A program made the position numbers and the translations under genes. A stretch of 64,000 bases of DNA, from NCBI RefSeq assembly GCF_963921235.1, contig NC_086097.1, positions 100,008,001 through 100,072,000 of the forward strand, in the 5' to 3' direction. The stretch's first letter is position 1. Every line of letters begins with the position of its first letter. Under the pieces are notes generated by a model. The model was not told where the DNA came from. It searched no databases and saw only the letters and a program-made list of their open reading frames with translations. This stretch comes from Mobula hypostoma (taxonomy: Eukaryota). Shown here one piece after another: positions 1-61,510 of this stretch.

Positions 1-935
1 GGAGGGACTCAGCAGGCCAGGCATCTACAGAAAAAAGTATAGTTGACATTTTGGGCAGGACTGGAGTAAATAAGGTGAGGAGTAGATTTGAAAGATGGGG
101 GGAAGGGAAGGAGAAATACAGGGTGATAGGTGAAGCCCAGAGGGGGAGGGGTGAAGTAAAGAGCTGGAAGTTGATTGGCGAAAGAGATATGGGGCTGGAG
201 AAGGGGGAATCTGATAGGAGAGAATAGAAGGCCATGGAAGAAAGAAAAGGGGGGAGCAGCACTACGGGGAGTCGATGGGCAGGCAAGGAGATAAGGAAAA
301 GGGGATGGGGGATGGGGGATGGGGAATGGTGAATGGTCCATTACCGTAAGTTGGAGAAATCGATGTTCATGTCATCAGGTTGGAGGCTATCCCCCCTCTC
401 CCACTTCACCATTCCCCATCCCCTTTCCTTCTCACACCTTATCTCCTTGCCTGCCCATCACCTCCCTCTGGTGCTCCTACCCCCTTTTCTTTCTTCCATG
501 GCTTTCTGTCCTCTCCTATCAGATTGACAGGTGTCTAATTAGTCAGGGTATCAAGGGATATGGGGAAAAAGCCGGAAATTGGAACTAGATAGGTGAATAG
601 TTTAGCTCGATGGGCCGAATGGCCTACTTCTGCTCCTTTGTCTTGTGAATTGTGAATTCCCCCTTCTCCAGCTCTGTATCTCTCTCTCACCAATCAACCT
701 CCCAGCTCTTTACTTCATCCCTTCCCCTTCTGGTTTCACCTATCACCTTATGTTTCTCTCTTCCCTTCCTCACGTTTAAAATCTACTCAGCCTTTTTTCT
801 CCAGTCCTGCCGAAGGGTCTCTGCCTGAAATGTCAATGGTATATTTTTCCCCATAGATGCTGCCTGGCCTGCTGAGTTCCTCCAGCATTTTGTGTGTTGC
901 TTGGATTTCCAGCATCTGAAGATTCTCTCTTGTTT
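1..935. mobile_element. Inverted pair of Penelope-like element 3' regions (minus 1-385, plus ~390-935) with a CR1 3'-end piece at ~520-655
   Basis: Both halves match 61040-61510; degenerate hammerhead at ~801-840. Confidence 0.75.
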
Positions 936-2871
936 GAAGTTAGGCTGGAACTGTTTACAACACTTGTGAGATTACAGCTTCACTATCTGAAGTACCAGTT
1001 GCCGTATTACAAGGAGAGTGCTGGAGAGAGTGAAAATTGGATTTGAGGCTATTGGCAGAAACAGAATTTTGTTCTGATTTCAATGTGGGTATTGTGGGCA
1101 AGACCAGCATTTATAGCTCATCCTGGAGAAGGTGCTGTTGGGGAGGGAGTTTCAATCAGGTATCCCCTTACTCTACTAAATTCAATCATCTTCATCTCTG
1201 TTCACAAAAGTGCCATCCAAGGAATCAGCCTGCTGAACCTTCTCTAAACTATCTCCATGGCAAGAACATTCTTTCATAGAAAAGGAGACCTAAACTGCAC
1301 ATAGTACTCACAGTGAAATCACACCAAGGGCCTGAACAATATCCAAGATCCTTTCACTGACAGCCAACACACCGGCTGCATCTGTGTAGTTACTCACTTG
1401 GACACACAGGTCTTATTGCATCCCCTCCTTTTCCCCAAACATCACACAATGATCTGTTTCCTTGCCTTTGGCACTCAGCGATACCCCACTAATCATCACC
1501 TGGCAACTGGAAACACAACCCATTTATTCCTACCTTTTGTTACCCATCTGCCAATCAGCCCACTCTCCATGTTGGTACATCACTGCAAATCCACAAGCAT
1601 ACTAATTCTGCAAATGGGACCTGGTCAAAACCCTTCTGAGGATCCAAATACACCACATTATAACTTACATCCTCATTTTACATCTTTAAAATGTACTCCA
1701 GCATTATTCCCCCATGGTAACATCAGACTAGCCGGTCTATAGTTCACCCCTTTCTCTCCATTTCCTGCTTAGATAGGAGGTTACGTTCGTTGCCTCCCAA
1801 TTTGTGGGTGTTCACCTGACCCATCCATTCGACACTCCTGCAGTCTACAACTTCCTCCCACACTACCACTTTTGTTTCATATCAAGCAACCAAATTAAAC
1901 ACTCTGCAATATTCTTCAAATGCAACAAGTCTGGCATGATTTCATTGCAAACAGCATTGGAACGACCATCGGCTGTTACCTTCCCTTTTGATGTCATGGG
2001 TTTTATTTATCTGGTAAGTTCATCACATGTGACAGATGGCTGCTAAAGTCATGAACACCATATCAAATACAATCACATCAGAGTAACTGCTTGCATTCTC
2101 CTCAAATAACAGTCAAGCATAACCTTCACCTCCAACTACTTCAGCTGACTCTCACTAAGTGGTGAAGTAAACTGCTCCTCATTTTATTTTCCAGTGATAT
2201 GTCCACCACTGACATTAGGCTAACTGGTTTATCTTCTCCTTTCAATCTGTGGTATTGTTTGTAATCTTCCAGACCTCTAACGAGGGAGGGGCAGCAGAGT
2301 TTTGAATGACATTGTTGATTGAGACTAGAATAGAATGGAGAGCTGCCAGCGCTTCTGAAGCTGCCAAGTCTAAAAGTAACAAAAGCACGAAAGAGGACTT
2401 CAGCAGGAGTTGAGCTGAGGAAGGTTAGAATAAAACTATGCTAGAGGTAGGAATAGCTGAGGTTAGCAACAGCAAGAGTGAAGCATTAATATTCAACTCG
2501 AGTCAAATATCATAGCAGAGTTGCGATCACTCTGAGTTAAGGCAGGCGTGAGGAGTGAGTCGGTGGCAAAGGGATTGAGTCTGCTTGGGGGTCAAAAAGT
2601 GCACATTTCACCTTAGTTGGAGGAAATTTGTTTTCACCCAGTACTGGATGCTGGACAGTTTATAGACAACAGACTGGTATTGTGTACTTGTGTGCAACGA
2701 TACCATTCTCACTGGTTAAAAGCATTCAGTACCTTCTTCACCAAATACCATATGAAATAAACAAGGTAATACAATAAAGAGGAAACATGCAGTTGAAAAG
2801 AAAATAGCCTTGGGAAAAATTACAAGCCCATAACTTTTCCATGAAGTAAATGTATGACAATGATGCCTTAC

Positions 2872-2951: not shown

Positions 2952-4695
2952 CTGTCACAGCAGCTTAAGGAAAATTACTAGCATTATTATACAGAATTCA
3001 TGACAAACTTATGGAAAGATTGCTGCCAGGTTAGTATTAACAGCTATTTCAGTCCTGGTCAGTGCGTGGTGTGCCCTCTTCGCACTGTTACCCTCAGGAA
3101 GAATAGAAGCCTGAAGGCACACACTCAATTGGTTCAGGAACTTCCCTTCTGCCATTCAATTTCTGAATGGGCATTGAACCATTAAATAGTTACATAAGTA
3201 GTGCAAAAATAGAAATCAAAAGTAGTGTGGTAGTGTTCATGGGTTCAATGTCTATTCAGAAATTGGATGGCAGAGGGGAAGAAGCTGTTCCTGAATCACT
3301 GAGTGTGTGCCTTCAGGCTCCTGTACCTCCTACCTGAGGGTAACAATGAGAAGAGGGCATGACCTGGGTGGTGGGGGTCCTTAATGATAGATGCCCCCTT
3401 TTTGAGGCATTACTCCTTGAAGATGTCCTGGGTACTGGGAAGGCTAGAGCCCATGATGGAGCTGACTGAGTTTACAACTCTCTGCAGCTTACTTCGGCCT
3501 TCCCCCACCCATACCGGACACGATGCAACCAGTTAGAAGGCTCTCCATGGAAGTTCCCGCCTGCTTCAAAAGGACCCAAAACAAGCAGTGTGAGCTGTCT
3601 TCATGACTATCATTTAGTAGCACTCACATCAATGGTGATGAAGTGCTTTGAGAGTTGGTATGCTAGAATTAACTCCTGTCTTAGCAAGGACCTGGACCCA
3701 CGGCAATTTTCCTATTGCCATAATAGGTTTATGGTGGATGCGATTTCAGTGGCTCTTCATGGGGCCTTGGATCACCTGGACAATACAAATACCTAAGTCA
3801 GGGTGCTGTTTATTGACCACAGCTCAGGATTTAAACACAACCATTTCTGATCAATAAGCTGCAGAACTGGGGCCTCTCAACATCCTTCTGCAACTGGATC
3901 CCGATTTCCTAACTGGATAACATCTCTACCTCGCTGACAATCAACACTGGTGCACCTCTGGGATGTGTGCTTAGCCCACCGCTCTTCTCTCTCTCTACAC
4001 TCATGACTGTGAGGCTAGGCACAGATCAGATGCCATCTATAAATATGCTGACAATACAACCGTTGTTGGCAGAATTTCATATGGTGACGAGAGGGTGTAC
4101 GGGAGTGAGATATACCAACTGGTTGAGAGGTATTGCAGCAACAACCCTGCACTCAAAGTCAGTAAGACCAAGGAACTGATATTGGACTTCAGAAAAGGTA
4201 AGATGAAGGAACACACACCAGTCATAGAGGGATCAAATGTGGAAAGAGTGAGCAATTTCAAGTTCCTGGGTGTCACTATCTCTGAGGTTCTAACCTAGAC
4301 CCAACATAATGATGCAGCACAACAGTGGCTATATTTCATTTCGAGTTTGAGGAGGTTTGGTACGGAGGAACAACTGCAGCAACACAGAGTCCAGACTGTG
4401 TCTGGACTGTGGAACTCCTCACTGTCGAGCACCTTCACCGGAAACACTGTAGTGATTCAAGAAGGCAGTTGTCATCTTCTTTAGGAAAACTAGGGATGGG
4501 CAACATACACTGGCTTCATCAGTGATATCCAGAACCTGAAAAATAAATAAACAAACAAAAATCTGGAACTCACCCTCTCACTGGAGGATCCACCCCATGG
4601 CAAAACACAGAACTCAGATGGCATATCAGATCATTTGACGATACAATCATCATGTCAGGCTGCATTATTAAGCTTAGCATGTTTTAAAAGGATAC
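2952..4695 (-). other. U12-type (minor spliceosome) GT-AG intron of DCAF4
   Basis: 5'ss GTATCCTTTT at 4695-4686; branch box TTTTCCTTAAG at 2974-2964, 12 nt from the exon; no polypyrimidine tract. Confidence 0.92.
3050..4450. mobile_element. Rex1/Babar-type LINE fragments (minus 3' part ~3190-3550, plus RT part ~3560-4340) inside the U12 intron
   Basis: VALTSMVMKCFE, LKVSKTKELILDFRK, FKFLGV motifs. Confidence 0.8.
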
Positions 4696-8221: not shown

Positions 8222-11107
8222 TCGCAAGGAGCATTCGTAATAAGGTGGATGAACTGAAAGTGCAGATTGTTATTAATGATTATGATATAGTTGGGATCAC
8301 AGAGACATGGCTCCAGGGTGACCAGGGATGGGAGCTCAACGTTCAGGGATATTCAATATTCAGGAGGGATAGACATGAAGGAAGGGGAGGTGGGGTGGCG
8401 TTGCTGGTTAAAAAAGAGATTAACGCAATAGAAAGGAAGGACATAAGCCGGGAAGATGTGGAATCGATATGGGTAGAGCTGCGTAACACTAAGGGGCAGA
8501 AGACGCTGGTGGGAGTTGTGTACAGGCCACCTAACAGTAGTAGTGAGGTCGGAGATGGTATTAAACAGGAAATTAGAAATGTGTGCAATAAAGGAACAGC
8601 AGTTATAATGGGTGACTTCAATCTACATGTAGACTGGGTGAACCAAATTGGTAAAGGTGCTGAGGAAGAGGATTTCTTGGAATGTATGCGAGATGGTTTT
8701 TTGAACCAACATGTCGAGGAACCAACTAGAGAGCAGGCTATTCTGGACTGGGTTTTGAGCAATGAGGAAGGGTTAATTAGCGATCTTGTCGTGAGAGGCC
8801 CCTTGGGTAAGAGTGACCATAATATGGTGGAATTCTTCATTAATATGGAGAGTGACATAGTTAATTCTGAAACAAAGGTTCTGAACTTAAAGAGGGGTAA
8901 CTTTGAAGGTATGAGACGTGAATTAGCTAAGATAGACTGGCAAATGACACTTAAAGGATTGACGGTGGATATGCAATGGCAAGCATTTAAAGGTTGCATG
9001 GATGAACTACAACAATTGTTCATCCCAGTTTGGCAAAAGAATAAATCAAGGAAGGTAGTGCACCCGTGGCTGGCAAGAGAAATTAGGGATAGTATCAAGT
9101 CCAAAGAAGTAGCATACAAATTAGCCAGAGAAAGTGGCTCACCTGAGGACTGGGAGAAATTCAGAGTTCAGCAGAGGAGGACAAAGGGCTTAATTAGGCA
9201 GAGGAAAAAAGATTATGAGAGAAAACTGGCAGAGAACATAAAAACGGACTGTAAAAGCTTTTATAGATATGTAAAAAGGAAAAGACTGGTAAAGACAAAT
9301 GTAGGTCCCCTGCAGACAGAAACAGGTGAATTGATTATGGGGAGCAAGGACATGGCAGACCAATTGAATAATTACTTTGGTTCTGTCTTCACTAAGGAGG
9401 ACATAAATAATCTTCCAGAAATAGTAAGGGACAGAGGGTCCAGTGAGATGGAGGAACTGAATGAAATACATGTTAGTAGGGAAGTGGTGTTAGGTAAATT
9501 GAAGGGATTGAAGGCAGATAAATCCCCAGGGCCAGATGGTCTGCATCCTAGAGTGCTTAAGGAAGTAGCCCAAGAAATAGTGGATGCATTAGTGATAATT
9601 TTTCAAAACTCGTTAGATTCTGGACTAGTTCCTGAGGATTGGAGGGTGGCTAATGTAACCTCACTTTTTAAAAAAGGAGGGAGAGAGAAACCGGGGAATT
9701 ATAGACCGGTTAGCCTAACGTCGGTGGTGGGGAACTGCTGGAGTCAGTTATCAAGGATGTGATAACAGCACATTTGGAAAGCGGTGAAATGATCGGACAA
9801 AGTCAGCATGGGTTTGTGAAAGGAAAATCATGTCTGACGAATCTCATAGAATTTTTTGAGGATGTAACTAGTAGAGTGGATAGGGGAGAACCAGTGGATG
9901 TGGTATATTTGGATTTTCAAAAGGCTTTTGACAAGGTCCCACACAGGAGATTAGTGTGCAAACTTAAAGCACACGGTATTGGGGGTAAGGTATTGGTGTG
10001 GGTGGAGAATTGGTTAGCAGACAGGAAGCAAAGAGTGGGAATAAACGGGACCTTTTCAGAATGGCAGGCGGTAACTAGTGGGGTACCGCAAGGCTCAGTG
10101 CTGGGACCCCAGTTGTTTACAATATATATTAATGACTTGGATGAGGGAATTAAATGCAGCATCTCCAAGTTTGCGGATGACACGAAGCTGGGTGGCAGTG
10201 TTAGCAGTGAGGAGGATGCTAAGAGGATGCAGGGTGACTTGGATAGGTTGGGTGAGTGGGCAAACTCATGGCAGATGCAATTTAATGTGGATAAATGTGA
10301 AGTTATCCACTTTGGTGGCAAAAATAGGAAAACAGATTATTATCTGAATGGTGGCCGATTAGGAAAAGGGGAGGTGCAACGAGACCTGGGTGTCATTATA
10401 CACCAGTCATTGAAAGTGGGCATGCAGGTACAGTAGGCGGTGAAAAAGGCGAATGGTATGCTGGCATTTATAGCGAGAGGATTCGAGTACAGGAGCAGGG
10501 AGGTACTACTGCAGTTGTACAAGGCCTTGGTGAGACCACACCTGGAGTATTGTGTGCAGTTTTGGTCTCCTAATCTGAGGAAAGACATCTTTGCCATAGA
10601 GGGAGTACAAAGAAGGTTCACCAGATTGATTCCTGGGATGGCAGGTCTTTCATATGAAGAAAGACTGGATGAACTGGGCTTGTACTCGTTGGAAATTAGA
10701 AGATTGAGGGGGGATCTGTTTGAAACGTATAAGATCCTAAAGGGATTGGACAGGCTAGTTGCGGGAAGATTGTTCCCGATGTTGGGGAGGTCCAGAACGA
10801 GGGGTCACAGTTTGAGGATAGAGGGGAAGCCTTTTAGGACCGAGATTAGGAAAAACTTCTTCACACAGAGAGTGGTGAATCTGTGGAATTCTCTGCCACA
10901 GCAAACTGTTGAGGCCAGTTCATTGGCTATGTTTAAGAGGGAGTTAGATATGGCCCTTGTGGCTACAGGGGTCAGGGGGTATGGAGGGAAGGCTGGGGCG
11001 GGGTTCTGAGTTGGATGATCAGCCATGATCATAATAAATGGCGGTGCAGGCTCGAAGGGCCGAATGGCCTACTCCTGCACCTATTTTCTATGTTTCTATG
11101 TTTCTAT
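8222..11107 (+). mobile_element. Young CR1 LINE with near-complete ORF2 (APE endonuclease + RT), one frameshift (~9733) and one stop (10434-10436)
   Basis: GITETW, GVVYRPP, MGDFN, SDHN, YLDFQKAFDKVPH, GVPQGSVLGP, KFADDTK; (TTCTATGT)n tail. Confidence 0.97.
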
Positions 11108-11318
11108 ATCAGAATATGGACAACACGAAGATTTGCTATAAGAGGAGAAATGGAAATATACTTTATCATTGGACCTCACAGTCCCAGGGCTAGTCTGAAG
11201 CTTAACATCTTAATCAAGCTGGTGGTCAACTGTGAAAGACTCTGCAGAGGGAGAACAAAAAGTCCTACTAATTTCTTCCTCTTCCACTCCTGTGGCATAA
11301 ACAGGAAAGAATTGAGAA

Positions 11319-11420
11319 GTTAGTCCTGACAAAGGGTCTCGGCCTGAAACGTCGACTGCGCCTCTTCCTATAGATGCTGCTTGGCCTGCTGCGTTCACCA
11401 GCAACTTTGATGTATGTTGC
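11319..11420 (+). mobile_element. 102-nt hammerhead-containing Penelope-terminus insertion with 13-nt TSD
   Basis: AAAGAATTGAGAA at 11306-11318 and 11421-11433; core CTGACAA...GAAACGTCGAC. Confidence 0.8.
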
Positions 11421-11518
11421 AAAGAATTGAGAAAATACTTTACACCTGCTAACCAAGCTTCCAAAGTTATAAATTTGTTTTACAATTATTTTAACCTGAA
11501 TAAAAAATAGCAACAAAC

Positions 11519-11665
11519 CTTGCGAAGTGTGGTGTATAGATTATCACACATGGTCACAGAAATTAAGCCAGATCCCTTCCTACATCCCTCCAGATTCACA
11601 ATTCCATATTTGTAGCCAGTTTCATCATTTTTTACAACAAATAACCGCTCACAATTGGTGTCTGC
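11519..11665 (-). CDS. DCAF4: DCAF4 coding exon 6 (ADTNCERLFVVKNDETGYKYGIVNL...DNLYTTLRK)
   Basis: ttcatag| acceptor, AAG|gtttgt donor; 147 nt; matches the ADTNSDRLF...KYGIINL...ENLYFTNRK pattern. Confidence 0.92.
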
Positions 11666-11934
11666 CTATGAAGTATAGAAGACAATCATTAACTTTTGGA
11701 ATGACTTGGATTCATTGTCCAACAAATTAATATTTAACATGATTCTGACATTTCCAGACAGAATAATTATACAATAAATACTTAAATTCAGCAACAGACT
11801 ACTCAAAAGCAGAAAATAATGTAAATATTCAGAAGAATAGGCAGCATCTCTGAAGAGATAAACTGATCTTGTTTCAAACAACTTTCACCAGAACTGCCAT
11901 CACTTGGCACTGAGGGGAACAGACTGTGCTTACA

Positions 11935-12838
11935 TCGCAGATTGTTTCTACATGACAACTGTGAAAAGAGTGGTGAGGACTGGAGAGTCAGTGACAGCCT
12001 GGAGAGATGGCAACCGGAGCAGAACAGGCTGGCAACCCAATCTGTCTCCTCTGAGAGGAGGACCCCCACAAAAGCTACGATGAATCTAAGGGAAAGATAC
12101 CCCCAGGAGAGCCCAAGAGGGGGGGAGGATGAGCACCCCAGTCGGATGGACACAACAACATCAGACCGAGGCAATGAACAAACGACTATGAGGAAGCAGT
12201 ATGCATGTGGCAAAATCTGCAAGAACGATCGTGGCTTGAAGATCCACCAAGCGAGGATGAAGTGTTTGGCGGGAGCAGGAGCAGCACAACGCGCAGGTGT
12301 CCAACCTGGGGAGACGAAGGAGGGGCCAGGCCCGGAGTCACCCCATAGTGCCCGGAACCTCCATGTGTTGCAAACTAATCCCTCTAACATCAAGTCTAAC
12401 AGGAGGCAGATCAAATGGCCTGCAGCTATCATGCCTTCACTGTGGAAGCAGTTTGATGAAGATGTTAACCAAATTCTGGAGGCAATGGCGAAGGGAGGGG
12501 TTGACAGGAAGCTGCCCAATGGAGGTTGGGTGTAGGGGATTCGCAGCCGATTCCTTAGCTACAGCCTTCAAGCAATTTGGGCATCGAGGGAGAGAGGAAG
12601 AGGAGAGCCATCCGCAGTACCACCGATGCGGCAGAGAGGGCCTCAAGATGGCTGTGGCTCAAAAGAGGGGAGCCATGGAGTCATAAGTAGCTAGCCATCT
12701 GGACACAAGCTGGGGTCTGATCAGCCCCGGCTGGGTCACCTGGAGGAGGTTCTATGATGTTGAAAGACCCGAAACACCTGATGATTCCAGGAACATCACT
12801 CAAGATGTGTCCAGAAGCATCAATAGATGTATGTACAC
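11935..12838 (+). mobile_element. Internally deleted Hero-like (RLE-type non-LTR) retrotransposon
   Basis: N-terminal zinc finger CGKICKNDRGLKIHQARMKC and IKWP..W..FDEDV joined directly to C-terminal PMEVGCRGF; RT absent. Confidence 0.7.
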
Positions 12839-27830: not shown

Positions 27831-28894
27831 TTCTGTAAAGATAAGAAACATTATTTATAAACAGGTGAATCAGTACTGGGATTGTATAAACATTCATCAA
27901 TTGCCAGAACTAAATTCCTCCAGTTTCCTTCGACTTCTTCACTCAAAGGACATGCAAGTATGGAATGAGCTGCCAAGCGGAAACGGTAGATGCCGGTTCA
28001 ATTGTAACATTTAAGAACAGTTGGATGGGTACATGGATATCAGAGGTATGGAGGACTATGGTCTGGGTGCAGATAGCTGGGACTAGGCAGAAAACCTGGC
28101 CAGCATGGACTAGATGGACCTAAGAGCCTGTTTCTGTGCTCTAATGACTCTACAACTGTTTTGTGGGGCTGACATATACTATATATTAGCTGAGTCCTAG
28201 ACAGCCCCATTAATAGATATATTATTTCTATGAATACTCAGTCCCGCCTCATCAGAATTGTGTAAGTTTCATTTCTCATTGTTCCAAACTCTGAAGTGTA
28301 CCGTCTACTGATAGGACAAAGCTTCTTTTCCCAGTAACTAATTTGGTAATCTCTCTGTATCTTCAGCATATCCTTTCTTTATATAAAATCTGATCTTTAC
28401 ACAATATTCCAGTATCAACTGACTAGGGCCCTATACACTGCCAGCAAGACATCTTCCCTATGGTCCTGAAATCCTCCTACAATAAAGGCTGAGACACTAT
28501 TTTCCTTTGGAAGTTTTCATTGCTGGCACAGAAAGCAATTCAAATGACTTATGTACAAGGACACTCAGGTTCCTCCTTTCAGCACCTTCCATTCTCTCAC
28601 TACTTAAAAAACACCTGTAATTTGCCCCAAATACATCATACTTTGACAAATTAAATTCCTTCTATATGTCCATGTTAATCACTTAGCCTATCAATAATCT
28701 TAAATTCCTTCTAAGCAAGTTCATCAATTCACTCAGCCTATCTATAACCTCTTGAAGTATCCTCACAACCAACACTGAAAGGAAATAGCATTTCTTTTTA
28801 ATGATAATACATCAAGTTCCCAGTTTATAACAAGGTTCAGTTCCTGAGAACTCTCCACATTAAAACAAAACAAAAACTTCACACCATCTTAAAA

Positions 28895-29132
28895 ACTAGA
28901 GAAAATCTGCAGATGCTGGAAATCTGAGCAACACACACAAAACGCTGGAGCAACTCAGCAGGACAGGCAGCATCTATGGAAAGGAGTACAGATGATGTTT
29001 CAGGCCGAGACCCTTCATCAGGACTCATGAAGAAGGCTCTCAACCTGAAAAGTCGACTGCACCCTTTTCCAGAGATGCTGCCTGGCCTGCTGAATTCCTC
29101 CAGCATTTTGTGTATGTTGCTTGGATTTCCAG
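28895..29132. mobile_element. Foldback insertion of two inverted hammerhead-bearing Penelope termini
   Basis: Arms are reverse complements; CATCTTAAAA duplicated at 28885-28894 and 29133-29142. Confidence 0.75.
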
Positions 29133-29529
29133 CATCTTAAAAGTTTCTTCCCTAGGCAGTTAATCTGATCAACCACTCTGTTTAGAGTACCCCCCCCATC
29201 CACCTCTATAACTTCCATCACTACACTGTAAACAATTTAAACCACTTTTTATAATGCTTTTTACATCGTAAATACATGCTGGTATTTATGTATTTATACA
29301 TATTTTATTCCATATCTGTACTTCTAACTTTATTTTTTTAAACTTAATAACTTAATTTACATATTACTATTTAAGTATTTATAGTTCTATTACTATTTAT
29401 TATTTATGGTGCAACTGTAACGAAAACCAATTTCCCCCGGAATCAATAAAGTATGACTATGACTACTTTTATGTAATTCGTTAAAATTGTTGAATGTTTT
29501 TGTTGCATATCGCACCAACACACCAAAGT

Positions 29530-30300
29530 TCAAAGTCAAAGAAAATTCATTATCAAAGTACATATGTCACCATACACAACCCTGAGATTCATTTTCTCGT
29601 GGGCATACTCAATAAATCCACAATAGAATACTAACCATAATAGAACCAATGAAAGACCGTGCCAGCCTGGGTGTTCAACCAATGTGAAAAAGACAACAAA
29701 CTACAAATACAGAAAGAAAAAAGTTAATAATTAATAAGTATCAAGAACATGAAATGAAAAGTCCTTGTAAGTGAGTTATGGGAACATTTCGGTGATGGAG
29801 CAAGTGAAATTGAGTTAAGTTACAAAACACTGGAGGAACTCAGCAGGCCAGACAGCGTCTATGGAAAAGAGTACACAGCCGATGTTTTGGGCTGAGACCC
29901 TTCATTAGGACAGGTGAAGTCCTGATGGAAGGTCTCGACCCAAAACACCAACCGTTTACTCTTTACCATGGATGCTGCCTGACCTGCTGAGTTCCTCCAG
30001 CATTTTGTGTATGTTGCTTGGATTTCCAGCATCTGCAGATTTTCTCTTTGTTGAGTGAAATTATCACCTTTGGTTTAAGAGCCTGAAGTTTGAGGGGCAA
30101 CAACCGTTTCTGAACTTGGTAGTGTGGGTCCTGAGGCTCCTACACCTTCTTCCAGATAGCAGCAGTGAGAAGAGAGCATGACTTGGGTGTAGGGGAGGGG
30201 GGCAAACCCTGATGATGGATATTGCCCTCCTGTGACAATGCTCCGTGTAGATGTGCTCAATGGAGGAGAGGGCTTTACCAGTGATGGACTGGGCTTCATC
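29530..30300 (-). mobile_element. Rex1/Babar 3' fragment interrupted by a second foldback hammerhead insertion (29823-30050)
   Basis: HPSHALFSLLLSGRR.RSLRT.T; imperfect TSD TTGAGTTAAGTTA / TTGAGTGAAATTA. Confidence 0.75.
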
Positions 30301-33300
30301 CATTACAGCAAATTCCTAATTCATATAAATGTGGTGATTGCCCATCATGTCCAATGATGACAGGAAACCTGTGCAGGAGAGTAATTAAAGTGGAAAAGCC
30401 ACTGTACTGGGGCAGTTCCACTCTCTTTACCTCAGAAGTCCAGGTCCAGTGGTACCAACTGGGATCTTCCTTGGTTGCAGTGGATGACCAAGACACCTTC
30501 AGTACCTTGTCATGCCCTTCATTCTCCATGGAGCATTGCAGAACCACCTTCCTGGCCATTGGCTCTCACTGTAGATCTCATCCGCTCAGTCTGCCAGAGC
30601 TGACTTCGCATGCTAAGATAGGCGTGTCCTTATCTCACCAGGCCTGAGACTGCCAGCTACCCTCATGTGGTTTAGCCTGCTTGTTGAAGCAGTGTATCGG
30701 GGTGTGGCTGCTGTCACATACAAAGAGCTACTTGGAGCCAGAGGTGAGAGCTGAGTGTTCGGTGGGGATCAAAGGTGAGTGAGCTGCCCCAGAATGGACG
30801 TGACAAGCCCCTTTACCAGAGGTGCTATCACTCCCTGGATAGCCCAATGTAAATAATAATTCTATATAAATAACCCTACATATAAATGTATATGGCAAAT
30901 AAAGTTCCTCGAGAAGCCAAACTGTTTCAACTAAAGTTGAAATTGAATAAAAACACAAAACGTTCACAGGAACAGCAGTCACCAGGCACATGAAGAGCTG
31001 CCTCCAACTGGCCTCTCTGACCCTAAGAGTCAGCAGGTGAGTCTGCTCAGCGTTCCCAGCTCTACTTGGCTTGACTCGACCCTGCCCAGATGTTGGGGCT
31101 CAAGTCGGATGGTAAGGGAAGGCAAGCAGAAGTGCCCTGTTCCCACCTGTAAAAAGATCCCTACAGTCCTGCAACCACCAGTTAATCCACCCCACCAGTC
31201 TCCCAAATGGTTATTCATTTGCATGGGATATCCATTAGCATTTGTAATCTGGAGAGGACCTGTATATACTGCACAATCACAAAATCATGCCCCAATCTGC
31301 ATCAGGTACACAATTTATAGTTCTATATGAGGAGAGAAGTTCTACTCAGTATGTTGTCCAATGCTTAAGCCTCTAACGAATAGTGCTACCTGGCCATTGA
31401 CATATTGCTGTTAAGCAGAAATATTTAATACTGAAAAATTGGACAATCTTAATAGAGGATTTGTTTACAGATGTCAGCAGTCTTATGACAACTGTATAAG
31501 GCCTTGGTGAGACCAAACTTGGAGATGCCTGTGTAATATGGCTCTCCTTACTTGAGAAAATATATACTTATCACAGGGAGATTCCAGGAATGTCATGAGG
31601 AAAGAATGAGTAGACTACAACTGTATTCTTAGCCTTTGTAATGAATGATGACAAGAGATCTCATCAAAACTTAAACGTTCTTAAATGGCTTGACAGGACA
31701 GATGCAGCAGAAATTTCCCCAAAATGATTTTAGGACCAGGGCACATATTTTGAGAATAAGAAGGCAGCTATTAAGACTGGAATGTCTTCACCCAGAGGGT
31801 GGTGAACCTTCTGGCTCTAACCCAGACAACAGGGGAAGCTCAGTACTTTTACAGCAGAGATGCTTGGATTTTTGAGTATTCCAGGAATCAAGAGATCAGG
31901 GGACAGTGCTGTAAAGTGGCACTTGAGGGCGTGTGTTGTTATGTTTGTAGGACTTTGGCATTAGCAAATTGGTTGCTGTATTTCTCACATTCCAACACTC
32001 AACAAGTATTTAATTTGCTGGAATGTGGGATGTCCCAAAGGTCTGGAAGAACCTATTTAATGCTTCTCCTTTGATTCCTCTTTTTAACTGTTCCAGTCTT
32101 GGATATCTTCACCTGTCCTTGCAAATCATCACCTTGATTCTTCACAACTTTAGTATTTTCCTACTCTCCTGCCTTTACAATAGATGATATTCCTTTACAT
32201 AATCACAGATTCCCTCTTTGCATTCTTCTCCACATTGTCTGGAATAGCAATTCTAAAAGCATCATTCTAATCCTGCTATTCTGCAGATGCTGGAGATCGA
32301 GCAACACACACAAAAAGCTGTTCTGATCTATTCTGATAAACGGTCTCAGCTCAAAATAGCAACTGCTCATTTCTCTCCATTATACTGCCTGACTTGCTGA
32401 GTTCCTTCAGCAATTTGCTTATGTTGCCCTCATTGCATTGACTTTGTAGACACTGCCCATAATCATCAGAATATCCCCTCACTATGAACCAGACCAAAGC
32501 AATCTTTCCACCTCACAAAGATATCCAACCTTCATGAAAGAAGACTGCAATTTCCTCAGAGTTCCAATAGATTTGTCAGGGAAGATTTCCCCTTGGAAAC
32601 CATGCTGACTCCAAGTACCCTGAAACCTCATCCTTAATAATGGACCCTAACATCTTGCCAACCACCTCAGTCTGATTAATGGGCCTATAATTTCCTTTCT
32701 TTTGCCTCTCTCCATTCTTAAAGAGTAGAGTGACATTTGCAATTTTCCAGTTCTTTGGAAATATTCCAGAATCTAGTGATTCTTGAAAGATCATTACTAA
32801 TGCCTCCACAACCTCTCCAGCTACCTCCTTCAGAACCCTGGAGCGTAGATCATCAGGTCACCAATTCATATCTTGGTCTGCCACCTTAATTTCTGTTACT
32901 TTCTCTTGTTTTGAGGGCATCACCTTGCTACATTAGCTTCTCTTTAAACACCTCCTTTCTCACAGAGGCATCTTTACCACCACATCCTCTGCAGTGAGCA
33001 AGAACCCATGCTTTGGAATTTGGCCATCAGGCATCTGGCCCTCTCCAATCAACAAGAACTTTCATCAACTCCACCTAATACTCCAAATGTGGCCTAATCA
33101 GAATTCTATACAGAGGCAGCATGACTTCCCTATTTTTATACTCAATGTCTTAAAATGATGAAGTCAAGAATGCCAGGCACCTTCTTTTTCACCGATCTAT
33201 CCATGCTGCCACTTTCAGGGAGCTATAGATGCACACAACACAGTAAGATACTGAAGAAGTAGGCCGTTGGGCCCATCCAATCCGCTCCATAATTTAATCA

Positions 33301-33319: not shown

Positions 33320-34040
33320 ACGCAAACAACAGGAATTCTGCAGATGCTGGAAATTCAAGCCACACACATAAAAGTTGCTGGTGAACGCAGCAGGCCAGGC
33401 AGCATCTCTAGGAAGAGGTGCAGTCGACGTTTCAGGCCGAGACCCTTCGTCAGGACTGGAAAGGTGGCCTCATCTTGGCACAAGAAGCCATGGATTAACG
33501 TGCTGGAATGGGAATTAAAATCATTGGCCACCGGGAAATTCCGCTTTTGCCGGATGGAGCGGAGGTGCTCAACAAAGCAGTCCCCCAATCTACAACAGGT
33601 CTCACCAATATACAGGAGGCTGCATCAGGAGCACCAGACACAATAGAGGACCCCAGCAGTTTCACAGGTGAAGTGTTGCCTTACCTGCTTGAGGCCCTGA
33701 ATGGAGGTGACCGAGGAGGTGAATGGGCAGGTGCTGCACTTTGGCCACTTGCAGGAATATGTACCAGGAGGAAGATTAGGGGGGAGGGACAAATGGACAA
33801 GGGAATCATGGATGGAGCAATCTCTGCAAAAAGCAGGGAATGGGGGGAGGATGTAAAGATATGTTTGGAGGTAGTGGAACCTTTGGAATCAGCGGAAATC
33901 GTGGAGAATGATGTGATGGATGCAGAGGCTCATGGGTGGTAGGTGAGGACATGTGGAACACTATCCCAGTTAAGGTGGCGGGAAGACAGTGAGAGTGCAG
34001 ATGTTTGGGATAATGGTGGAGATTCATGTGAGGGCAGCGT
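33320..34040 (-). mobile_element. Penelope-like fragment: GIY-YIG region fused to a hammerhead terminus
   Basis: LGDCFVEHLRSI, PVANDFNS; terminus at 33320-33458. Confidence 0.8.
33421..33458 (-). ncRNA. Minimal type I hammerhead ribozyme (Penelope-type), intact core
   Basis: Minus strand reads CAGTC-CTGACGA-AGG GTCTCGG CCT-GAAA-CGTC-GACTG: 5-bp stem I, CUGANGA, stem II, GAAA, palindromic ACGU stem III, GUC cleavage triplet. Confidence 0.8.
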
Positions 34041-34894: not shown

Positions 34895-37185
34895 CATAGA
34901 ATATAGTCATAGAAAAGTACAGCACAGAAACAGGTCCCTTGGCCCATTTAGTGCATGAAGTTGCTCAGTCTCATTGACCTACACCCAGACCATAGCCCTT
35001 CATATCCCTGCCATCCACGTATTTATCCAAACTTCTCTTAATTATTGAAATCAAGTTCGCATGCACCACTGACGCTGGCTACTCGTCCAACACTATTGAC
35101 CCACTGAGTGAATAAATTTTCCCTCATGTCCCCCTTAAACTTTTCACCTTTCAACCTTAACCCCTGATCTCCAGTTGTAGTCCCACCCAACCTCAGTGGT
35201 TAAAGTCTGCTTGCATTTACCCTATTTATACCCCTCATAATTTTGTATACCTATACCAAATCTCCCTTCCATCTTCTACAGTCCAAAGAATAAAAAGTAC
35301 TAACCTATTCAAATTTTCCTTATAAGTCAGGTCCTCCAGTCCCAGTAATATCTTTGTAAATGTTCTCTTTCCTCTTTCAACCTTATTTACATCTTTCCTG
35401 TAGGTAGGTGACCAAACCTGCACACAATACTTCAAATTAGGTCTCACCAACGTCTTATACAACTTCAATGTAACATCCCAATACATTGTCCTTCATAAAT
35501 CGAAGTACCAAAAGCTTTCTTTACAACCTTCAGGGTATCCTGCATGAGAACTCCCAAGTCCCGTTGCATCTCAGAACTTTGAATTCTCTCCCCATTTAAA
35601 TAATAGTCTGCCCATTTATTTCTTCTGTCAAAGTGCATAACCATACACTTTCCAACATTGTATTTCATTTGCCACTTTTTTGCCCATTCTTCCAATCTAT
35701 CCAAGACTCTCTGCAGACTCTCTGTTTCCTCAGCACTACCGGCCCCTCCACCTATCTTCGTATCGTCAGCAAACTTAGCCACAAAGCCATCTATTCCATA
35801 ACCCAAATTGTTGATGTACAACGTAAAAAGAAGCGGCCCCAACACAGACCCCTGTAGAATACCACTGGTAACCGGCAGCCAACCAGAATAGGACCCCTTT
35901 ATTCCCACTCCCTGTTTCCTGCCAATCAGCCAATGCTCTATCCACGTATGTAACTTTCCCGTAATTCCATGGGCTCTTATCTTGTTAAGTAGCCTCATGT
36001 GTGGCACCTTGTCAAAGGCCTTCTGAAAATCCAAATATACAACATCCACTGCATCTCCTTTGTCTAGCCTACTTGTAATTTCCTCAAAAAATTGTAATAG
36101 GTTTGTCAGGCAGGATTTTCCTTTAAGGAATCCATGCTGAGTTCTGCCTATCTTGTCATATGCCTCCAGGTACTCCGTAACCTCATCCTTGACAATCGAC
36201 TCCAACAACTTCCCAACCACCAATGTCAAGCTAACAGGTTTATAATTTCCTTTTTGCTTCCTTGCCCCCTTCTTAAATAGCGGAGTGACATTTGCAATCT
36301 TCCAGTCCTCCGGAACCATGCCAGAATCTATCGACTTTTGAAAGATCATCGCTAATGCCTCTGCCATCTCCACAGCTACTTCCTTCAGAACACAACGGTG
36401 CATTCCATCTGGTCTGGGAGATTTATCTACCTTTAGCCTATTCAGCTTCCTGAGTACTTTCTCTGTCGTAATTGTGACTGCGCACACTTCTCTTCCCTGC
36501 CACCCTTGAGTGTCCGGTATACTGCTGTCTTCATCAGTGAAGACTGATGCAAAATAATCGTTCAGTTCCTCCGCCATCTCCTTATCTCCCATTACAATTT
36601 CTCCAGCATCATTTTCTATCGGTCCTATATCTACTCTCACCTGTCTTTTACTCTTTATATACTTGAAAAAGCTTTTAGTATTCTCTTTGATATTATCTGC
36701 TAGCTTCCTTTCATTGTTCTTTTCCCTCTTAATCACCTTCTTAATTTCCTTTTGTAAGCTTTTAAAAACTTCCCAATCCTCTGTCTTCCCACTAATTTTT
36801 GCTCCCTTGTACGCCCTCTCCTTTGCTTTAACTTTGGCTTTGACCTCTCTTGTCAACCCTGAACTTGCCCATCCCTGAAGACAGACTCACTGATCTATAA
36901 TTTCCTGGGTTATCTCTACTCCCTTCTTTTGCAACATTTGCAACCCCCCAGTCCTCTGGCACTTCTCCCATCCCTATTGATGATGCAAAGATAAAGCCTC
37001 GGGTATATCTCATCCGGACCTGGCGACTTACCTAACTTAATGATTTTCAAAAGCTCCAACACATCCTTTTTCTTAATGTCTATATGCTCAAGCGTTTCAG
37101 TCCGCTGCAAATCATCCCCACAATTGCCAAGATCCTTTTCCCTGATGAATAGTGAAGCAAAGTATTCATTTAAGTAGCTCTGCTA
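34895..37185 (-). mobile_element. Composite CR1; the 35524-36856 block is near-identical to 39533-40860
   Basis: RT ORF 35465-36856; flanks belong to a different CR1 subfamily. Confidence 0.9.
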
Positions 37186-37699: not shown

Positions 37700-38620
37700 A
37701 GCCTCATCATCCCAACGTGTCCAAGCTGACCGATTGAGACACAAGCGACTGCAGAAGCTGGAATGTGGAGCAATAAGCATTCAGGTTCTACAGGAGGAAC
37801 TCAGCAGGCCGAGCAGAATCAATATGAGGAGAGGAATTGTCGACGTTTCAGGTCGAATCCCTGCATCAGATCTCGAAACGTCGTCGACAATTCCTTTCCT
37901 CCCCTTCCCCATCCAGATACTGCTCGACCCACAGACTGCTGGGTCTTAACCAACTGCCGAGCGGAGCTGATCCAATTTGTATGCTGAATCATATTCCTCT
38001 CCACGAATCTCTCCCAATGCGTTCCGTGTTTCACTGCATTGCCTGTTCGTTGTAAAGCAAGGACCGAGGTGGCGGTGGTCTTTGGGACAGGGCTGAGGCA
38101 GAGGGCCCAAGGCACCGGACCCTGAACAACGCTTGCAGCTGACGGTGGAGATCATCATTATCTCACCTCGGTTGTATACGTACAAACACCCGACGACTCA
38201 CAGCAGTCGCTGATTCTTGTGAACTGAACGCAAGAACACCACTAACCATTTAAACTGCCGCCAAACCTTAAAACGACATTCACAGAACTACCGACCGACA
38301 GAAGCCTACCGGCAGTCAATCCAATACGCATGCTCAGAGAGGCATGCGCATGCCCGGAGCAAACATGACGGGCAGGTCCAGTGTCGGTTGGTAGGTATGC
38401 GCATGCTCCAATCTTACTTGCGGTGCCGGACCCGCTCTTGCCGGCTGGTACATGCTCAGACTTTAACTCCTCCGCATGCGCACTGCGGCTCCACCCGGCC
38501 GCTCACGGTCGGGACGCGGCGCCGTTCGGTCGGTTTGCCCTCTCTCGGAGCTGGCGTTCTGGTGGATAAGAACGTGTGCAGTGCTTGCAAAGTAGAGAAC
38601 GGTATCGGATTCGAAACTTG
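37700..38620. promoter_or_regulatory. CpG-rich promoter with clustered NRF1-type GCGCATGCGC motifs and CCAAT
   Basis: CpG-rich unique stretch; motifs at 38325-38336, 38341-38354 (perfect palindrome GGCATGCGCATGCC), 38398-38408 and 38472-38482; CCAAT at 38321. Confidence 0.8.
38167..38330 (-). other. DCAF4: Probable non-coding exon 1 of DCAF4 (boundaries approximate)
   Basis: Minus-strand donors GCT|GTGAGT (38202/38201) and GAG|GTGAGA (38167/38166) just downstream of the CpG-rich promoter; the first coding exon has an acceptor 2 nt before the ATG, so an upstream exon is required. Confidence 0.55.
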
Positions 38621-38639: not shown

Positions 38640-41600
38640 AAATGCAATATGGGTTGAAGGGCGACTTCCCTGCTTCCTGGGAAAATAGGAGTTATCACTG
38701 TATTGAAACCTGGGTAAAGATCAATCAGACCCTTCCAATTGTAGAAGTGTTTCGCTAACATCACAGGTATGTGAGGTAATAGGACGAATGGTTACAGCAG
38801 GGCTTTCTTATTTTGTGGAAAATAGTGGAGAATTAGCTGTATACCAATCCATGAACAGGAACATGGCGTTAAGTTTGGAACCTGATATTCGTGAAGCCCG
38901 AGTTAATAAAAGGATCAGTCGTAGCAGTTTTCTTTGACGCAGAGAAAGCTGGACACGGATTGCTGCTTAAACTGGAAAGGATGGGAAGAAGTGATAGAAT
39001 GTCAAATTGGATTCAAGAATTTTTTATGGGATAGGAAGATACAAGTTAGTGTGGGACAACGTTCTCTAAGGAGAATGGGATAGAGAATGGGTCTCTACAG
39101 TGGAAAATATGTAGCCACTCCTTTTAATTTTATGATTAATGATATTTTGTTAAATGTAGGCACAGACATTTCCAAATTATTATATACTGATGATATAAAT
39201 TACATAGTTAGGAATATGCAGGCAGCTAGTAATGAAGTGGAGGAGGGTAGTTTAAACTTTCTGTTTCAAAGACTCAAGTTATTTGTGTTTTTTTTCTAAA
39301 ATGAGCATTACACCCACAATTGATCTCAAGTTATGTGGCAAATCTCTCAAACAAAAGTCAGTGGTAACATTTCCAGATATGTGGATGAACACAGGGCTAA
39401 CATGGAAGGTAATTGTGAATATAATTGGCAGAGCAGCAGTGGCTGGAGTTTATGCGAGAAGTGAGGAAGGTGCAAGACAGGTATATTCCAAAAAAGAAGA
39501 AATTTTCGAATGGAAAAAGGATGCAACCGTGGCTGACAAGAGAAGTCAAAGCCAAAGTTAAAGCAAAGGAGAGGGCATACAAGGAAACAAAAATTAGTGG
39601 GAAGACAGAGGATTGGGAAGTTTTTAACAGTTTACAAAAGGAAACTAAGAAGGTCATTAAGAGGGAAAAGATGAACTATGAAAGGAAGCTAGCAGATAAT
39701 ATCAAAGAGGATACTAAAAGCCTTTTCAAGTATATAAAGAGTAAAAGACAGGTGAGAGTAGATATAGGACCGATAGAAAATGATGCTGAAGAAATTGTAA
39801 TGGGAGATAAGGAGATGGCAGAGGAACTGAACAAGTATTTTGCATCAGTCTTCACTGAGGAAGACATCAGCAGGATACCGGACACTCAAGGGTGGCAGGG
39901 AAGAGAAGTGTGCGCAGTCACAATTACGACAGAGAAAGTACTCAGGAAGCTGAATAGTCTAAAGGTAGATAAATCTCCCAGACCAGATGGAATGCACCCG
40001 CGTGTTCTGAAGGAAGTAGCTGTGGAGATTGCGGAGGCATTAGCGATGATCTTTCAAAAGTCAATAGATTCTGGCGTGGTTCTGGAGGACTGGAAGATTG
40101 CAAATGTCACTCTGCTATTTAAGAAGGGGGCAAGGAAGCAAAAAGGAAATTATAGACTTGTTAGCTTGACATTGGTGGTTGGGAAGTTGTTGGAGTTGAT
40201 TGTCAAGGATGAGGTTACAGAGTACCTGGAGGCATACGACAAGATAGGCAGAACTCAGCATGGATTCCTTAAAGGAAAATCCTGCCTGACAAACCTATTA
40301 CAATTTTTTGAGGAAATTACCAGTAGGCTAGACAAGGGAGATGCAGTGGATGTTGTATATTTGGATTTTCAGAAGGCCTTTGACATGGTGCCACACATGA
40401 GGCTACCTAGCAAGATAAGAGCCCATGGAATTATGGGAAAGTTACATACGTGGATAGAGCATTGGCTGATTGGCAGGAAACAGAGAGTGGGAATAAAGGG
40501 ATCCTATTCTGGTTGGCTGCCGGTTACCAGTGGTGTTCCACAGGGATCAGTGTTGGGGCCGCTTCTTTTTACATTGTACATCAATGATTTGGATTATGGA
40601 ATAGATGGCTTTGTGGCTAAGTTTGCTGATGAAACGAAGATAGGTGGAGGGGCCGGTAGTGCTGAGGAAACAGAGTCTGCAGAGAGACTTGGATAGGTCG
40701 GAAGAATGGGCAGAGAAGTGGCAAATGAAATACAATGTTGGAAAGTGTATGGTTATGCACTTTGGCAGAAGAAATAAACAGGCAGACTATTATTTAAATG
40801 GGGAGAGAATTCAAAGTTCTGAGATGCAACAGAATTTGGGAGTCCTCGTACAGGACACCCTTGAGGTTAGCTTCCAGGTTGAGTCGGTGGTGAAGAAGGC
40901 GAATGCAAGGTTGGCATTCATTTCTAGAGGAATAGAGTATAGGAGCAGGTATGTGATGTTGAGGCCCTATAAGGCATTGGTGAGATCTCACTTGGAGTAC
41001 TGTGGGCAGTTTTGGTCTCCTTATTTAAGAAAGGATGTGCTGACATTGGAGAGGGTACAGAGAAGATTCACTAGAATGATTCTGGGAATGAGAGGGTTAA
41101 CATATGAGGAACGTTTGTCCAGTCTTGGACTGTATTCCTTGGAGTTTAGAAGAATGAGGGGAGACCTGATAGAAACATTTTGAATGTTGAAAGGCATGGA
41201 CAGAGTGGATGTAGCAAAGTTGTTTCCCATGATGGTGGAGTCTAGTACGAGAGGGCATGACTTAAGGATTGAAGAGCGGCCATTCAGAACAGAAATGTGA
41301 AGAAATTTTTTTAGCCAGAGGGTGGTGAATCTATGGAATTTGTTGCCATGGGCGGCAGTGGAGGCCAAGTCATTGGGTGTATTTAAGGCAGAGATTGATA
41401 GGTATCTGAGTAGCCAGGGCATCAAAGGTTATGGTGAGAAGGCGGGGGAGTGGGACTAAATGGGAGAATGGATCAGCTCATGATAAAATGGCGGAGCAGA
41501 CTCGATGGGCCGAATGGCCGACTTCTGCTCCTTTGTCTTATGGTCTTATGATTCTAGAGGAGTGTAAAAAAAGCCCTTAGTGTGCTCTGGTGCTTGGGTG

Positions 41601-58979: not shown

Positions 58980-61510
58980 CACCATCACCAACATTCCCCT
59001 CTCGGGGGCAGTAAGGGTCTCACCTTTGTCCCCCGCACCCATACCTCAGTGAGTTGAATCCGTCATGATGCTGAGCTCTTCTTCCACCGCCTTAGTCCCA
59101 AGCCTACTTCTTTGGTAAGGATTCTCCACCCGCATCGATGGGCCCTTCTCCTGTCTTCAACCCTCCTCCTCTTCCTGGATATCCCCCCCCCCCCAATCTT
59201 CTGCCTGCTATGGACCTTTTCATTGCCAACTGCCGACAGGATATTAACTGTCTAGACTTCAACACTCCTCTCTCCTATTCCAACCTTACTCCTTCCGAAT
59301 GCTCAGCTCTCCACTCCCTCCGCACTAATCCTAACCTCACCATCAAACCCGCAGATAAGGGGGGCGGCTGTAGTAGTCTGGCATACTGACCTCTACCTTG
59401 CTGAGGCCCAGAGCCAACAGTCACACACCTTCTCTTACTTACTCCTCGTACAGGACCCCACTAAGGAGCACCAGGCCAACGTCTCCCACACCATCACCAA
59501 CGTTATTGACTCTGGGGATCTTCCGTCCATCGCCACCAACCTCATAGTTCCCGCACCCCGCACCTCCCGTTTCTACTGCCTATTCAAGGTCCACAAACCC
59601 ACTTGTCCAAGTAGACCCATTATTTCAGCTTGTTCCTGCCCCAATGAACACATATCAGCATACTTCAACTCTGTCTTATCCACCCCCCCCCCGCCCCAGT
59701 TCAGTCCCTTCCCACCTACATCCGTGACACTTCACATGCTCTGGATCTTTTCAATGACTTCAAGTTCCCTGGCCTCCATCATCTTATTTTCACTATGGAT
59801 GCCCAGTCCCTAAACACCTCCATCCCCCATCAGGAAGGTCTCAAAGCTCTCTGTTTCTTTCTGGACACCAGACCTAACAAGTTCCCCTCCACCTAGTGGA
59901 ACTTGTCCTCACTCTAATTTCTCTTTTGGCTCCTTCCATTTCCTTCAAACAAAAGGTGTAGCCATGGGCACTCACATGGGTCCCAGCTATGCCTGCCTGT
60001 TGTCAGCTACGTGGAACAGTCCATGTTCCAAGCCTCCATTGCTGACGGTCCCGCACTTTTCCTACACCACATTGACGACTATATTGGTGCTGCTTCCTGC
60101 ACCCATGCTGAACTCGTTGACTTCATCCACTTCGCCTCCAACTTCTACTCTACCCTCAAATTTACCCGTTCCATTTCTGGCACCTCCCTCCCCTTTCTCA
60201 ATGTCACTGTCTCTATTTCTGGAGACATCTTATCTACTGATGTCTACTATAACCCCACGGACTCGCACAGCTGCCTGGACTATACCTCTTCCCACCCTGT
60301 TACTTTGAAAAACCCCATCCCCTTCTCTCAATTCCTCTGTCTCCACCACATCTGCTCTCAGGATGAGGCTTTTCATTCTAGAACGAAGGAGATGTCCTCC
60401 TCCTTCAAAGAAAGGGGCTTCCCTTCCTCCACCATCAATGCTGCCCTCAATCACATCTCTTCCATTTCACGCACGTCTGCTCTTACTCCATCCTCCCGTC
60501 ACCCTACCAGGGATAGGGTTCCTCCTGTCCTCACCTACCACCCCACCAGCCTCTGTATCCAGCACATAATTCTCCAAAACCTCTGCCATCTCCAACAGAA
60601 TCCCACCACAAGCACACCTTTCCCTCTCCTCCCACCCTCACTTTATGCTTTCTGCAGGGATCACTCCCTACGCAACTCCCTTGTCCATTCTTCCCTCCCC
60701 CGATCTCCCTCCTGGCACTTATCCCTGCAAGTGGAACAAGTACTACAGTTGCCCCTACACCTCCTCCCTCACTACCATTCAGGGCCTTAAACAGCCCTTC
60801 CAGGTGAGGCGACACTTCACCTGTGAGTCTGTTGGGGTCATTTACTGTGTCCGGTGTTCCTGGTGTGGCCTTCTGTATATCAGTGAGACCCGACATAGAT
60901 TGGGAGACCACTTCGTCGAGCATCTACACTCTGTCCACCAGAACAAGCAGGATCTCCCTGTGGCCACGCATTTTAATTCCACTTCCATTTCCATTCCGAT
61001 ATGTCCATCCATGGCCTCCTCCACTGTCATGATTAGGCCACACTTAGGTTGGAGGAACAACACTTTGTATTCTGTTTGGGTAGCCTCCAACCTGATGGCA
61101 TGAACATTGATTTCTCAAACTTCCGGTAAAGCCCCCCCCCCACTCCTTCACCATTTCCCATCCCCTTTTCCCTCTGACCTTACCTACTTGCCGGCCCATT
61201 GCCCTCCTCTGGTGCTCCTCCCCCGCACCTTTTCTTTCTTCCATGGTCTTCTGTCTCTTTCACCAAATCAACTTCTAAGCTCTACTTCATCCCTCCCCCT
61301 CCAGGTTTCACCTGTCACCTGGTGTTTCTCTTTCCCCTCTCCTACCTTTCAAATCTACCCTCAGCTTTTTTTCTCCAGTCCTGATGAAGAGTCTTGGCCA
61401 AAATGTCGACTGTTCACTCTTTTCCATAGGTGCTGCCTGGCCTGCTGAGTTCCTCCAGCATTTTGTGGGTGTTGCTCAGATTACCAGCATCTGCAGATTT
61501 TCTCTCGTTT
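58980..61510 (+). mobile_element. Penelope-like element (RT + GIY-YIG endonuclease), frameshifted, with terminal hammerhead
   Basis: IKPADKGG, KVHKP..RPIIS, GVAMGTHMGPSYA, HIDD, VIYCVRC..CGLLYISET.HRL..HF.EHL; hammerhead at 61376-61412. Confidence 0.93.

Follow-up and report, generated by a model that had tools for sequence, protein, structure and literature searches.

A 102-nt insertion of a Penelope-like element terminus in Mobula hypostoma: a young, PLE-derived unit that is likely a by-product of target-primed reverse transcription

How does a unit of only 102 nt, consisting of little more than a minimal hammerhead motif and a short stretch behind it, come to be inserted in the genome of the ray Mobula hypostoma? 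The unit lies in a 64-kb stretch of contig NC_086097.1, the whole of which was analyzed and is called the window here. A preliminary description of this DNA proposed that the unit moves on its own, in the manner of a retrozyme, with the enzymes of Penelope-like elements (PLEs). The unit and its flanking repeats are as follows.

11319..11420, plus strand: inserted unit, 102 nt; a tailless 3' end (solo pseudo-LTR stump) of what appears to be a young Neptune-type PLE subfamily
11306..11318, plus strand: target-site duplication (TSD), left copy, 13 nt, purine/A-rich; one copy is present in the empty site
11421..11433, plus strand: TSD, right copy, 13 nt, a perfect match to the left copy

The 13-mer flanking 11319-11420 occurs only twice in the whole 64-kb window, and when 60 random window positions were searched for repeats in the same way, none exceeded 9 nt (0 of 60 at 10 nt or more). 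The 102-nt insert with its perfect 13-nt direct repeat, as first described, is thus confirmed. TSD searches around the other insertions in the window (n = 13) gave no repeat clearly above the random range. The minimum free energy fold of 11300-11440 was no better than those of shuffled sequences (z +1.17).

Contigs of four public runs were compared with window positions 11095-11795: X1 (organism A, possibly the same sample as the assembly), X5 (organism B), X12 (organism C) and X13, which is RNA by guess only and whose contigs cannot show ends, strand or level. One contig each in X5 and X12 carries the empty site, with a joint from 11305 to 11421 that skips 115 nt; each carries one 13-mer, whose 13 letters fit either side of the joint. 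The flanks of these sites differ from the window at 5 of 575 positions in organism B and at 20 of 575 in organism C. In organism A (X1), both filled junctions are present and the empty joint is absent. An assembly artefact was rejected on the grounds that both junctions occur in organism A contigs (although X1 may be the source sample), and a deletion in the relatives was rejected on the grounds that exactly the same piece, the unit with one 13-mer, is missing in both B and C. The idea that both 13-mers preceded the unit fails on the same evidence, a single 13-mer in both organisms. Because two relatives have an empty site with one 13-mer, 11319-11420 is one young insertion. It was acquired by the ray lineage, as a hammerhead-bearing PLE fragment, after the split from a relative that differs by ~1% in the flanks. 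Sites of this kind can therefore serve as presence/absence markers, and there is probably an active source element. Of the summed depth at position 11360, the A allele has 98% in organisms B and C but 68% in organism A. The inserted copy has G there, which together with the lower share of the A allele in organism A indicates that the variant is enriched in the insertion-bearing lineage.

The terminus is abundant. In X1, 29,862 contigs fall on the 11095-11795 stretch, and summed depth, which is not a copy number, is 5-8 million within the unit versus about 10 in the flanks. Allowing for overlapping 31-mers, this suggests at least 10^4 copies of the terminus. Frequencies of CpG decay are lower in X13 than in X1, but this was given no weight, since non-core sites are affected as well and contigs drop rare variants. 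The unique right flank (11519-11665) is covered by one X13 contig, which may reflect host transcription or DNA.

A longer element with a related terminus lies in another part of the window.

59010..61510, plus strand: older, 5'-truncated, frameshifted PLE with reverse transcriptase (RT), Cys linker, GIY-YIG endonuclease (EN), 3' region, hammerhead and tail

Between its coding part and the hammerhead lie about 250 nt rich in pyrimidines. The insert is 76% identical to 61377-61475, in agreement with the likeness to a Penelope end at 61376-61510 that had been pointed out before. Judged from sequence, the element at 59010-61510 displays the architecture of the parent but, at 76%, is not the direct parent. 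RT and GIY-YIG were located by tblastn of full-length homologs over 59010-61114. Among five of these homologs, Pfam found GIY-YIG on all five and RVT_1 on three, with some matches below the curated cut-off, and it matched 0 of 5 of the window element's own broken frames. The CX2-5CxxC linker is present in the ray homolog P0002 and in 6 of 6 long homologs, and is degenerate in the window copy. Such a linker between RT and EN is described as the mark of the Neptune/Nematis type (PMC8557442). On the basis of the linker and the vertebrate host, the family appears to be Neptune-type; the nearest named relatives of the window element are predicted proteins of Hypanus and Mobula. A 41-nt minisatellite (61652-62062; 10 copies, 93% matches, no hammerhead motif) lies 140 nt after the end of this PLE.

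Copies of the inserted subfamily itself also extend upstream. Loose ends before 11318 were found in 121 contigs of X1 and 79 of X5, and by eye their consensus has 12 of 12 nt in common with the PLE body at 61345-61356, nearly in register. As copies run on into the PLE body, the unit is the end of a longer element, without a private 5' head, and the same subfamily evidently exists as longer copies. Translations of the unit matched none of 156 PLE-related proteins. Pattern scans for further copies gave 0 in viral and 0 in prokaryote genomes, and those of metagenomes gave 0 and then 2; the match L001 had no surrounding hammerhead or tail and was judged to be chance.

The hammerhead within the unit has the following parts.

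11321..11325, plus strand: helix I, 5' strand; the 5' ends of short copies cluster at its edge
11326..11332, plus strand: core CUGACAA, with G8 changed to A at 11331 (a CpG-type transition); predicted inactive
11334..11345, plus strand: helix II, 4 bp including two G-U, with a 4-nt loop and an extra unpaired A before it
11346..11353, plus strand: GAAA plus palindromic ACGU, without a helix III loop (dimer type); predicted cut at 11353/11354
11354..11358, plus strand: helix I, 3' strand

Read in order, these are a helix I of 5 bp, the core CUGACAA, the extra A, a helix II of 4 bp and GAAA-CGUC, followed by 67 nt. This anatomy bears out the earlier reading of a minimal hammerhead with one core change, G8 to A at 11331. 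Seven other aligned window copies have G at core position 8, versus A in the 11319-11420 unit; the change is also found in an organism A contig with 0 differences to the window. A descriptor scan of the window returned one intact motif (33453, minus strand) in addition to the G8A copy, and shuffles (30 runs each) gave means of 0.0 for the intact core and 0.07 with G8 relaxed. Pair probability of the helices is ~0.18 in the 11319-11420 copy versus 0.4-0.8 in a closely similar copy at 33457. An Rfam search of the insert gave no match to a hammerhead family, and among eight decayed window copies 0 helix pairs showed two-sided (compensatory) change. Replacement of G8 by A would abolish hammerhead cleavage, and the ribozyme in 11319-11420 is predicted to be a passenger that would not cut. 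A G8C change likewise abolishes cleavage of a PLE hammerhead (PMC11167929).

The motif closely resembles the minimal type I hammerheads of PLEs described by Cervera and De la Pena in 2014 (PMC4209133). It shares with them the short helix I, the extra nucleotide before helix II (an unpaired A there being typical), the palindromic 15.2-16.2 and the lack of helix III. In that account, most minimal hammerheads are single or in nearby opposite-strand pairs and are probably tied to truncated PLEs, as here. The ray unit differs in its helix II, which is 4 bp as against 7-8 bp in Schistosoma, and in the G8A change (PMC4209133).

The 3' end of the unit is one of two that recur among copies of the terminus.

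11401..11420, plus strand: small terminal hairpin; 11418-11420 coincide with the upstream 3'-end hot spot, the putative internal RT start site

In X1, loose ends behind 11418, 11419 and 11420 were found in 99, 105 and 328 contigs, respectively, with a median loose length of 255, and the loose sequence is a mix of tail and T-rich flanks. A second 3' end lies ~35 nt further: a tail is present on the copies at 803, 29025, 29918, 33457 and 61377, and a partial one at 29023. For an anole PLE studied in vitro, RT is shown to start at two internal sites, and a 30-40 nt tail is optional (PMC11167929). The two preferred 3' ends ~35 nt apart in the ray match these start sites and this tail. Ribozyme mutants of the anole element insert normally, and uncut RNA is its main template (PMC11167929).

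The 5' ends are clustered as well. Among 23 window copies, 16 begin within -10 to +20 of helix I, 5 extend more than 100 nt upstream, 2 start inside the unit and none has its start between about -10 and -100; in this count, some old, divergent copies may have been placed near helix I wrongly. When strong copies are counted once per event, 5 of 8 are near the helix-I edge (p 4e-4 against a uniform null, with the bin chosen post hoc and a profile that begins at helix I). Contig loose ends with long, low-agreement sequence occur at 11322-11324 in all three DNA or unlabelled runs; every contig copy that extends upstream is also clipped at 11318-11322, so that these counts mix junctions and body, and 24 of 461 loose-end positions were listed. 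Over the four runs, the predicted cut site 11354 was not among the 5' loose-end positions listed (24 of 461). Random 5' boundaries, which would have spoken against the preliminary description, were thus not what we found. The literature covered, which was mostly open-access, held no statement of 5' ends clustering at helix I, nor of the ray family.

One further solo unit, which begins at about -10 and has the 3' end in common with the insert, is read through by a gene model for the predicted Mobula protein P0157. P0157 and P0158 are Mobula gene models with a translated young terminus (a STARD3NL-like C-terminus and a CoA synthase N-terminus, respectively), and these copies may be annotation artefacts or exonisation.

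A profile search of the window gave 28 matches at E up to 5, versus 2-4 per shuffle. All ten of the degenerate relatives initially listed are matched by the profile; the values for 26600 (E 0.03) and for the plus-strand arm at 55699 (E 0.017) make these two borderline, since 1 of 5 shuffles gave E 0.0009. Three further loci had been absent from that list.

33320..33464, minus strand: closest relative (93% twin); the core is intact, a tail of ~35 nt is present, and the copy begins ~7 nt upstream of helix I
28893..29150, both strands: inverted pair of the terminus, head to head, with its centre at the helix-I edge
29822..30050, both strands: second head-to-head pair, with a tail on one arm only

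The twin, at 33457-33320 on the minus strand, has 7 differences in 99 nt from the insert. It adjoins (33320-34038, minus strand) an old PLE endonuclease remnant at 34038-33504, with ~400 nt of body missing and no TSD found, and the junction could have arisen by a fresh insertion into an old copy or by a template switch. Five head-to-head pairs of 150-260 nt were found in all (28893-29150, 29822-30050, 32278-32434, 37749-37900 and 55619-55789), each with its junction at or near the helix-I edge, and a one-armed tail was seen in two of them. The contig comparison gave opposite-strand joints at 11317-11328. At the start of the window (1-936), a PLE 3' region is internally inverted, with 1-392 on the minus strand and 391-510 and 681-936 on the plus strand; another repeat interrupts it at about 520-650.

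Taken together, the RT and GIY-YIG domains, linker, hammerhead, tail, TSD with empty site and inverted partner place the family among the EN+ PLEs. With the Neptune-type members of that group as described (PMC3846280, PMC8557442, PMC11167929), it has in common the pLTR terminus, the TSD, the optional 30-40 nt tail, 3' ends ~35 nt apart, head-to-head partners, AT-rich targets and a parent with RT, Cys linker and GIY-YIG. In the ray, extremely short copies dominate and 5' ends cluster at the helix-I edge, a pattern not found in the accounts of those members that were covered (PMC3846280, PMC8557442, PMC11167929). The insertion at 11319-11420 is one of a known kind of PLE fragment and ordinary in kind.

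We therefore favor, with a probability of about 0.62, the reading that the unit is a recent single insertion of a PLE 3' end, made as a dead-end by-product of an autonomous element's target-primed reverse transcription. The insertion, its TSD and the positions of its ends are observed; the enzyme steps proposed here follow the biochemistry of a PLE of another clade, the in vitro model from anole being a Poseidon-clade element and the ray element Neptune-type. The GIY-YIG/RT protein would nick an A-rich target, and RT would start inside uncleaved element RNA, at the upstream of the two start sites, if the ray enzyme behaves like that of the anole PLE. Synthesis of cDNA would then stop on leaving helix I and entering the pyrimidine tract; structure, a bound protein or a weak RNA:DNA hybrid are candidate causes. 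The cDNA would join the other target end over a 1-nt (A) microhomology, and repair would give the 13-nt duplication. If the second end were also copied, a head-to-head pair would result. G8 would have mutated later, at the CpG.

The main alternative, possible but doubtful, agrees that the unit is a by-product, with the difference that its 5' boundary would be where the template RNA has its 5' end, set by a transcription start or related to splicing, and the unit would be run-off strong-stop cDNA whose jump to the upstream pseudo-LTR did not take place. In 4 of 4 long copies, a 20-mer of 85-90% pyrimidine is followed by an AG exactly at the helix-I edge. An initiator-like YYANWYY match is found at 61375, and upstream of 11318 a TACTAAC-like motif is part of the body consensus in X1 and X5. 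For Penelope of Drosophila virilis, an intron ending at the 5' end of helix I (PMC4209133) and a start site just upstream of helix I (PMC2377424) are described. However, these RNA-end motifs are unspecific, because pyrimidines make up 79% of the whole 3' region and initiator matches number 8 in its roughly 390 nt. The 5' ends are also ragged, most copies keeping a few nucleotides upstream of the AG, the TACTAAC-like motif is TACTAGC in X13, and P0157 reads through the AG unspliced, albeit as a gene model only. When predicted proteins were searched for use of the AG as a splice acceptor, there were 2 matches among 7 candidates, neither starting at the AG.

Rather unlikely, in our estimate, is the wider view in which the stump corresponds, for a PLE, to the strong-stop DNA of retroviruses, with an internal start and a programmed boundary at the 5' edge of the hammerhead. 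Full-length copies would need a template jump at that boundary, and the fold would be a landmark rather than scissors. Tail-bearing stumps in host transcripts could then be re-copied as a promoter-less mobile unit defined by start and stop signals only.

The aborted product of reverse transcription that we favor would have no life of its own, and this is where it parts from the preliminary description, in which PLE enzymes acting in trans copy the terminus, as a non-autonomous retrozyme- or SINE-like element, from its own transcripts. We consider such an element quite unlikely. The discrete, clustered boundaries, the TSD, the empty site and the very high abundance (the 29,862 X1 contigs) fit it, non-autonomous PLE derivatives are reported (PMC8557442; bioRxiv 10.64898/2026.07.22.740005), and pLTRs are described as able to act in trans (PMC3846280). 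On the other hand, the ends do not lie at the cut site: the unit retains 35 nt upstream of GUC, whereas a processed monomer would begin at 11354. The hammerhead is of the dimer type, and single minimal motifs are reported not to have cleaved in vitro (PMC4209133). The sequence of the unit is also common to the long copies. For the anole element, the RNA must reach +172 while RT starts at +111-118 (PMC11167929); by extrapolation, a tailless copy would be without the binding region and, since the RNA needed extends ~55 nt past the RT start, would likely not be a template.

Searches for hallmarks of such an element gave little. Head-to-tail hammerhead arrays were not found within the window; the contig table has 12 joints with short inserted letters, for which orientation is not given. 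No Pol III B box was found in the unit at one mismatch, and only loose A-box matches were seen. A tRNA search of the unit found no tRNA head. Non-LTR retrozymes resemble the ray unit in being non-coding, in their type I hammerhead and in their kinship to PLE pLTRs, and dispersed monomers of them are known. They are, however, described as head-to-tail arrays that self-cleave to monomers and circles, whereas the ray unit is solo or head-to-head (PMC7229834; bioRxiv 10.64898/2026.07.22.740005). A retrozyme unit is bounded by self-cleavage sites, and here the cut site is 35 nt inside the insert; a retrozyme hammerhead has helix III and loop contacts, and the present one is a minimal dimer-type motif. 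What stands of the proposed mobile unit is its PLE origin and, as its TSD and family suggest, its insertion as a unit by a PLE enzyme; self-propagation does not. With long copies that continue into the body, ends that are not cut ends, no arrays in the window and no B box, the idea of autonomous, retrozyme-like movement is not upheld, and the unit is probably not one that moves on its own.

Very improbable is that the unit arose by 5' truncation of the ordinary, random sort, or that recombination between direct pLTRs of a longer insertion left it as a solo pLTR, with clustering a detection bias. PLE insertions are usually 5'-truncated (PMC8557442), solo pLTRs through recombination or deletion are proposed in rotifer (PMC3846280), and the post-hoc bin, the profile start at helix I and the clipping of long copies speak for this reading. 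Against it, no window copy starts at about -10 to -100 and only two start clearly inside the unit, and the head-to-head pairs are centred on the helix-I edge too. A recombination event does not by itself fix where the 5' edge falls, and the insertion is of very young age.

How PLE reverse transcription is completed and what role a weak ribozyme has are questions touched by the non-random 5' stop, and a young, abundant vertebrate family would make both testable. Other repeats in the window were seen in passing. A ~200-nt near-perfect hairpin at 3110-3317, with sub-threshold matches to miRNA families and a relative near 22345, is probably a MITE. By eye, 12180-12830 is a fragment resembling a non-LTR retrotransposon; it has a zinc-finger-like frame and seems to have lost a large internal part. 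Two LINE-like copies (35525-36858 and 39531-40868) are 91-96% complementary and lie inverted, about 2.7 kb apart.
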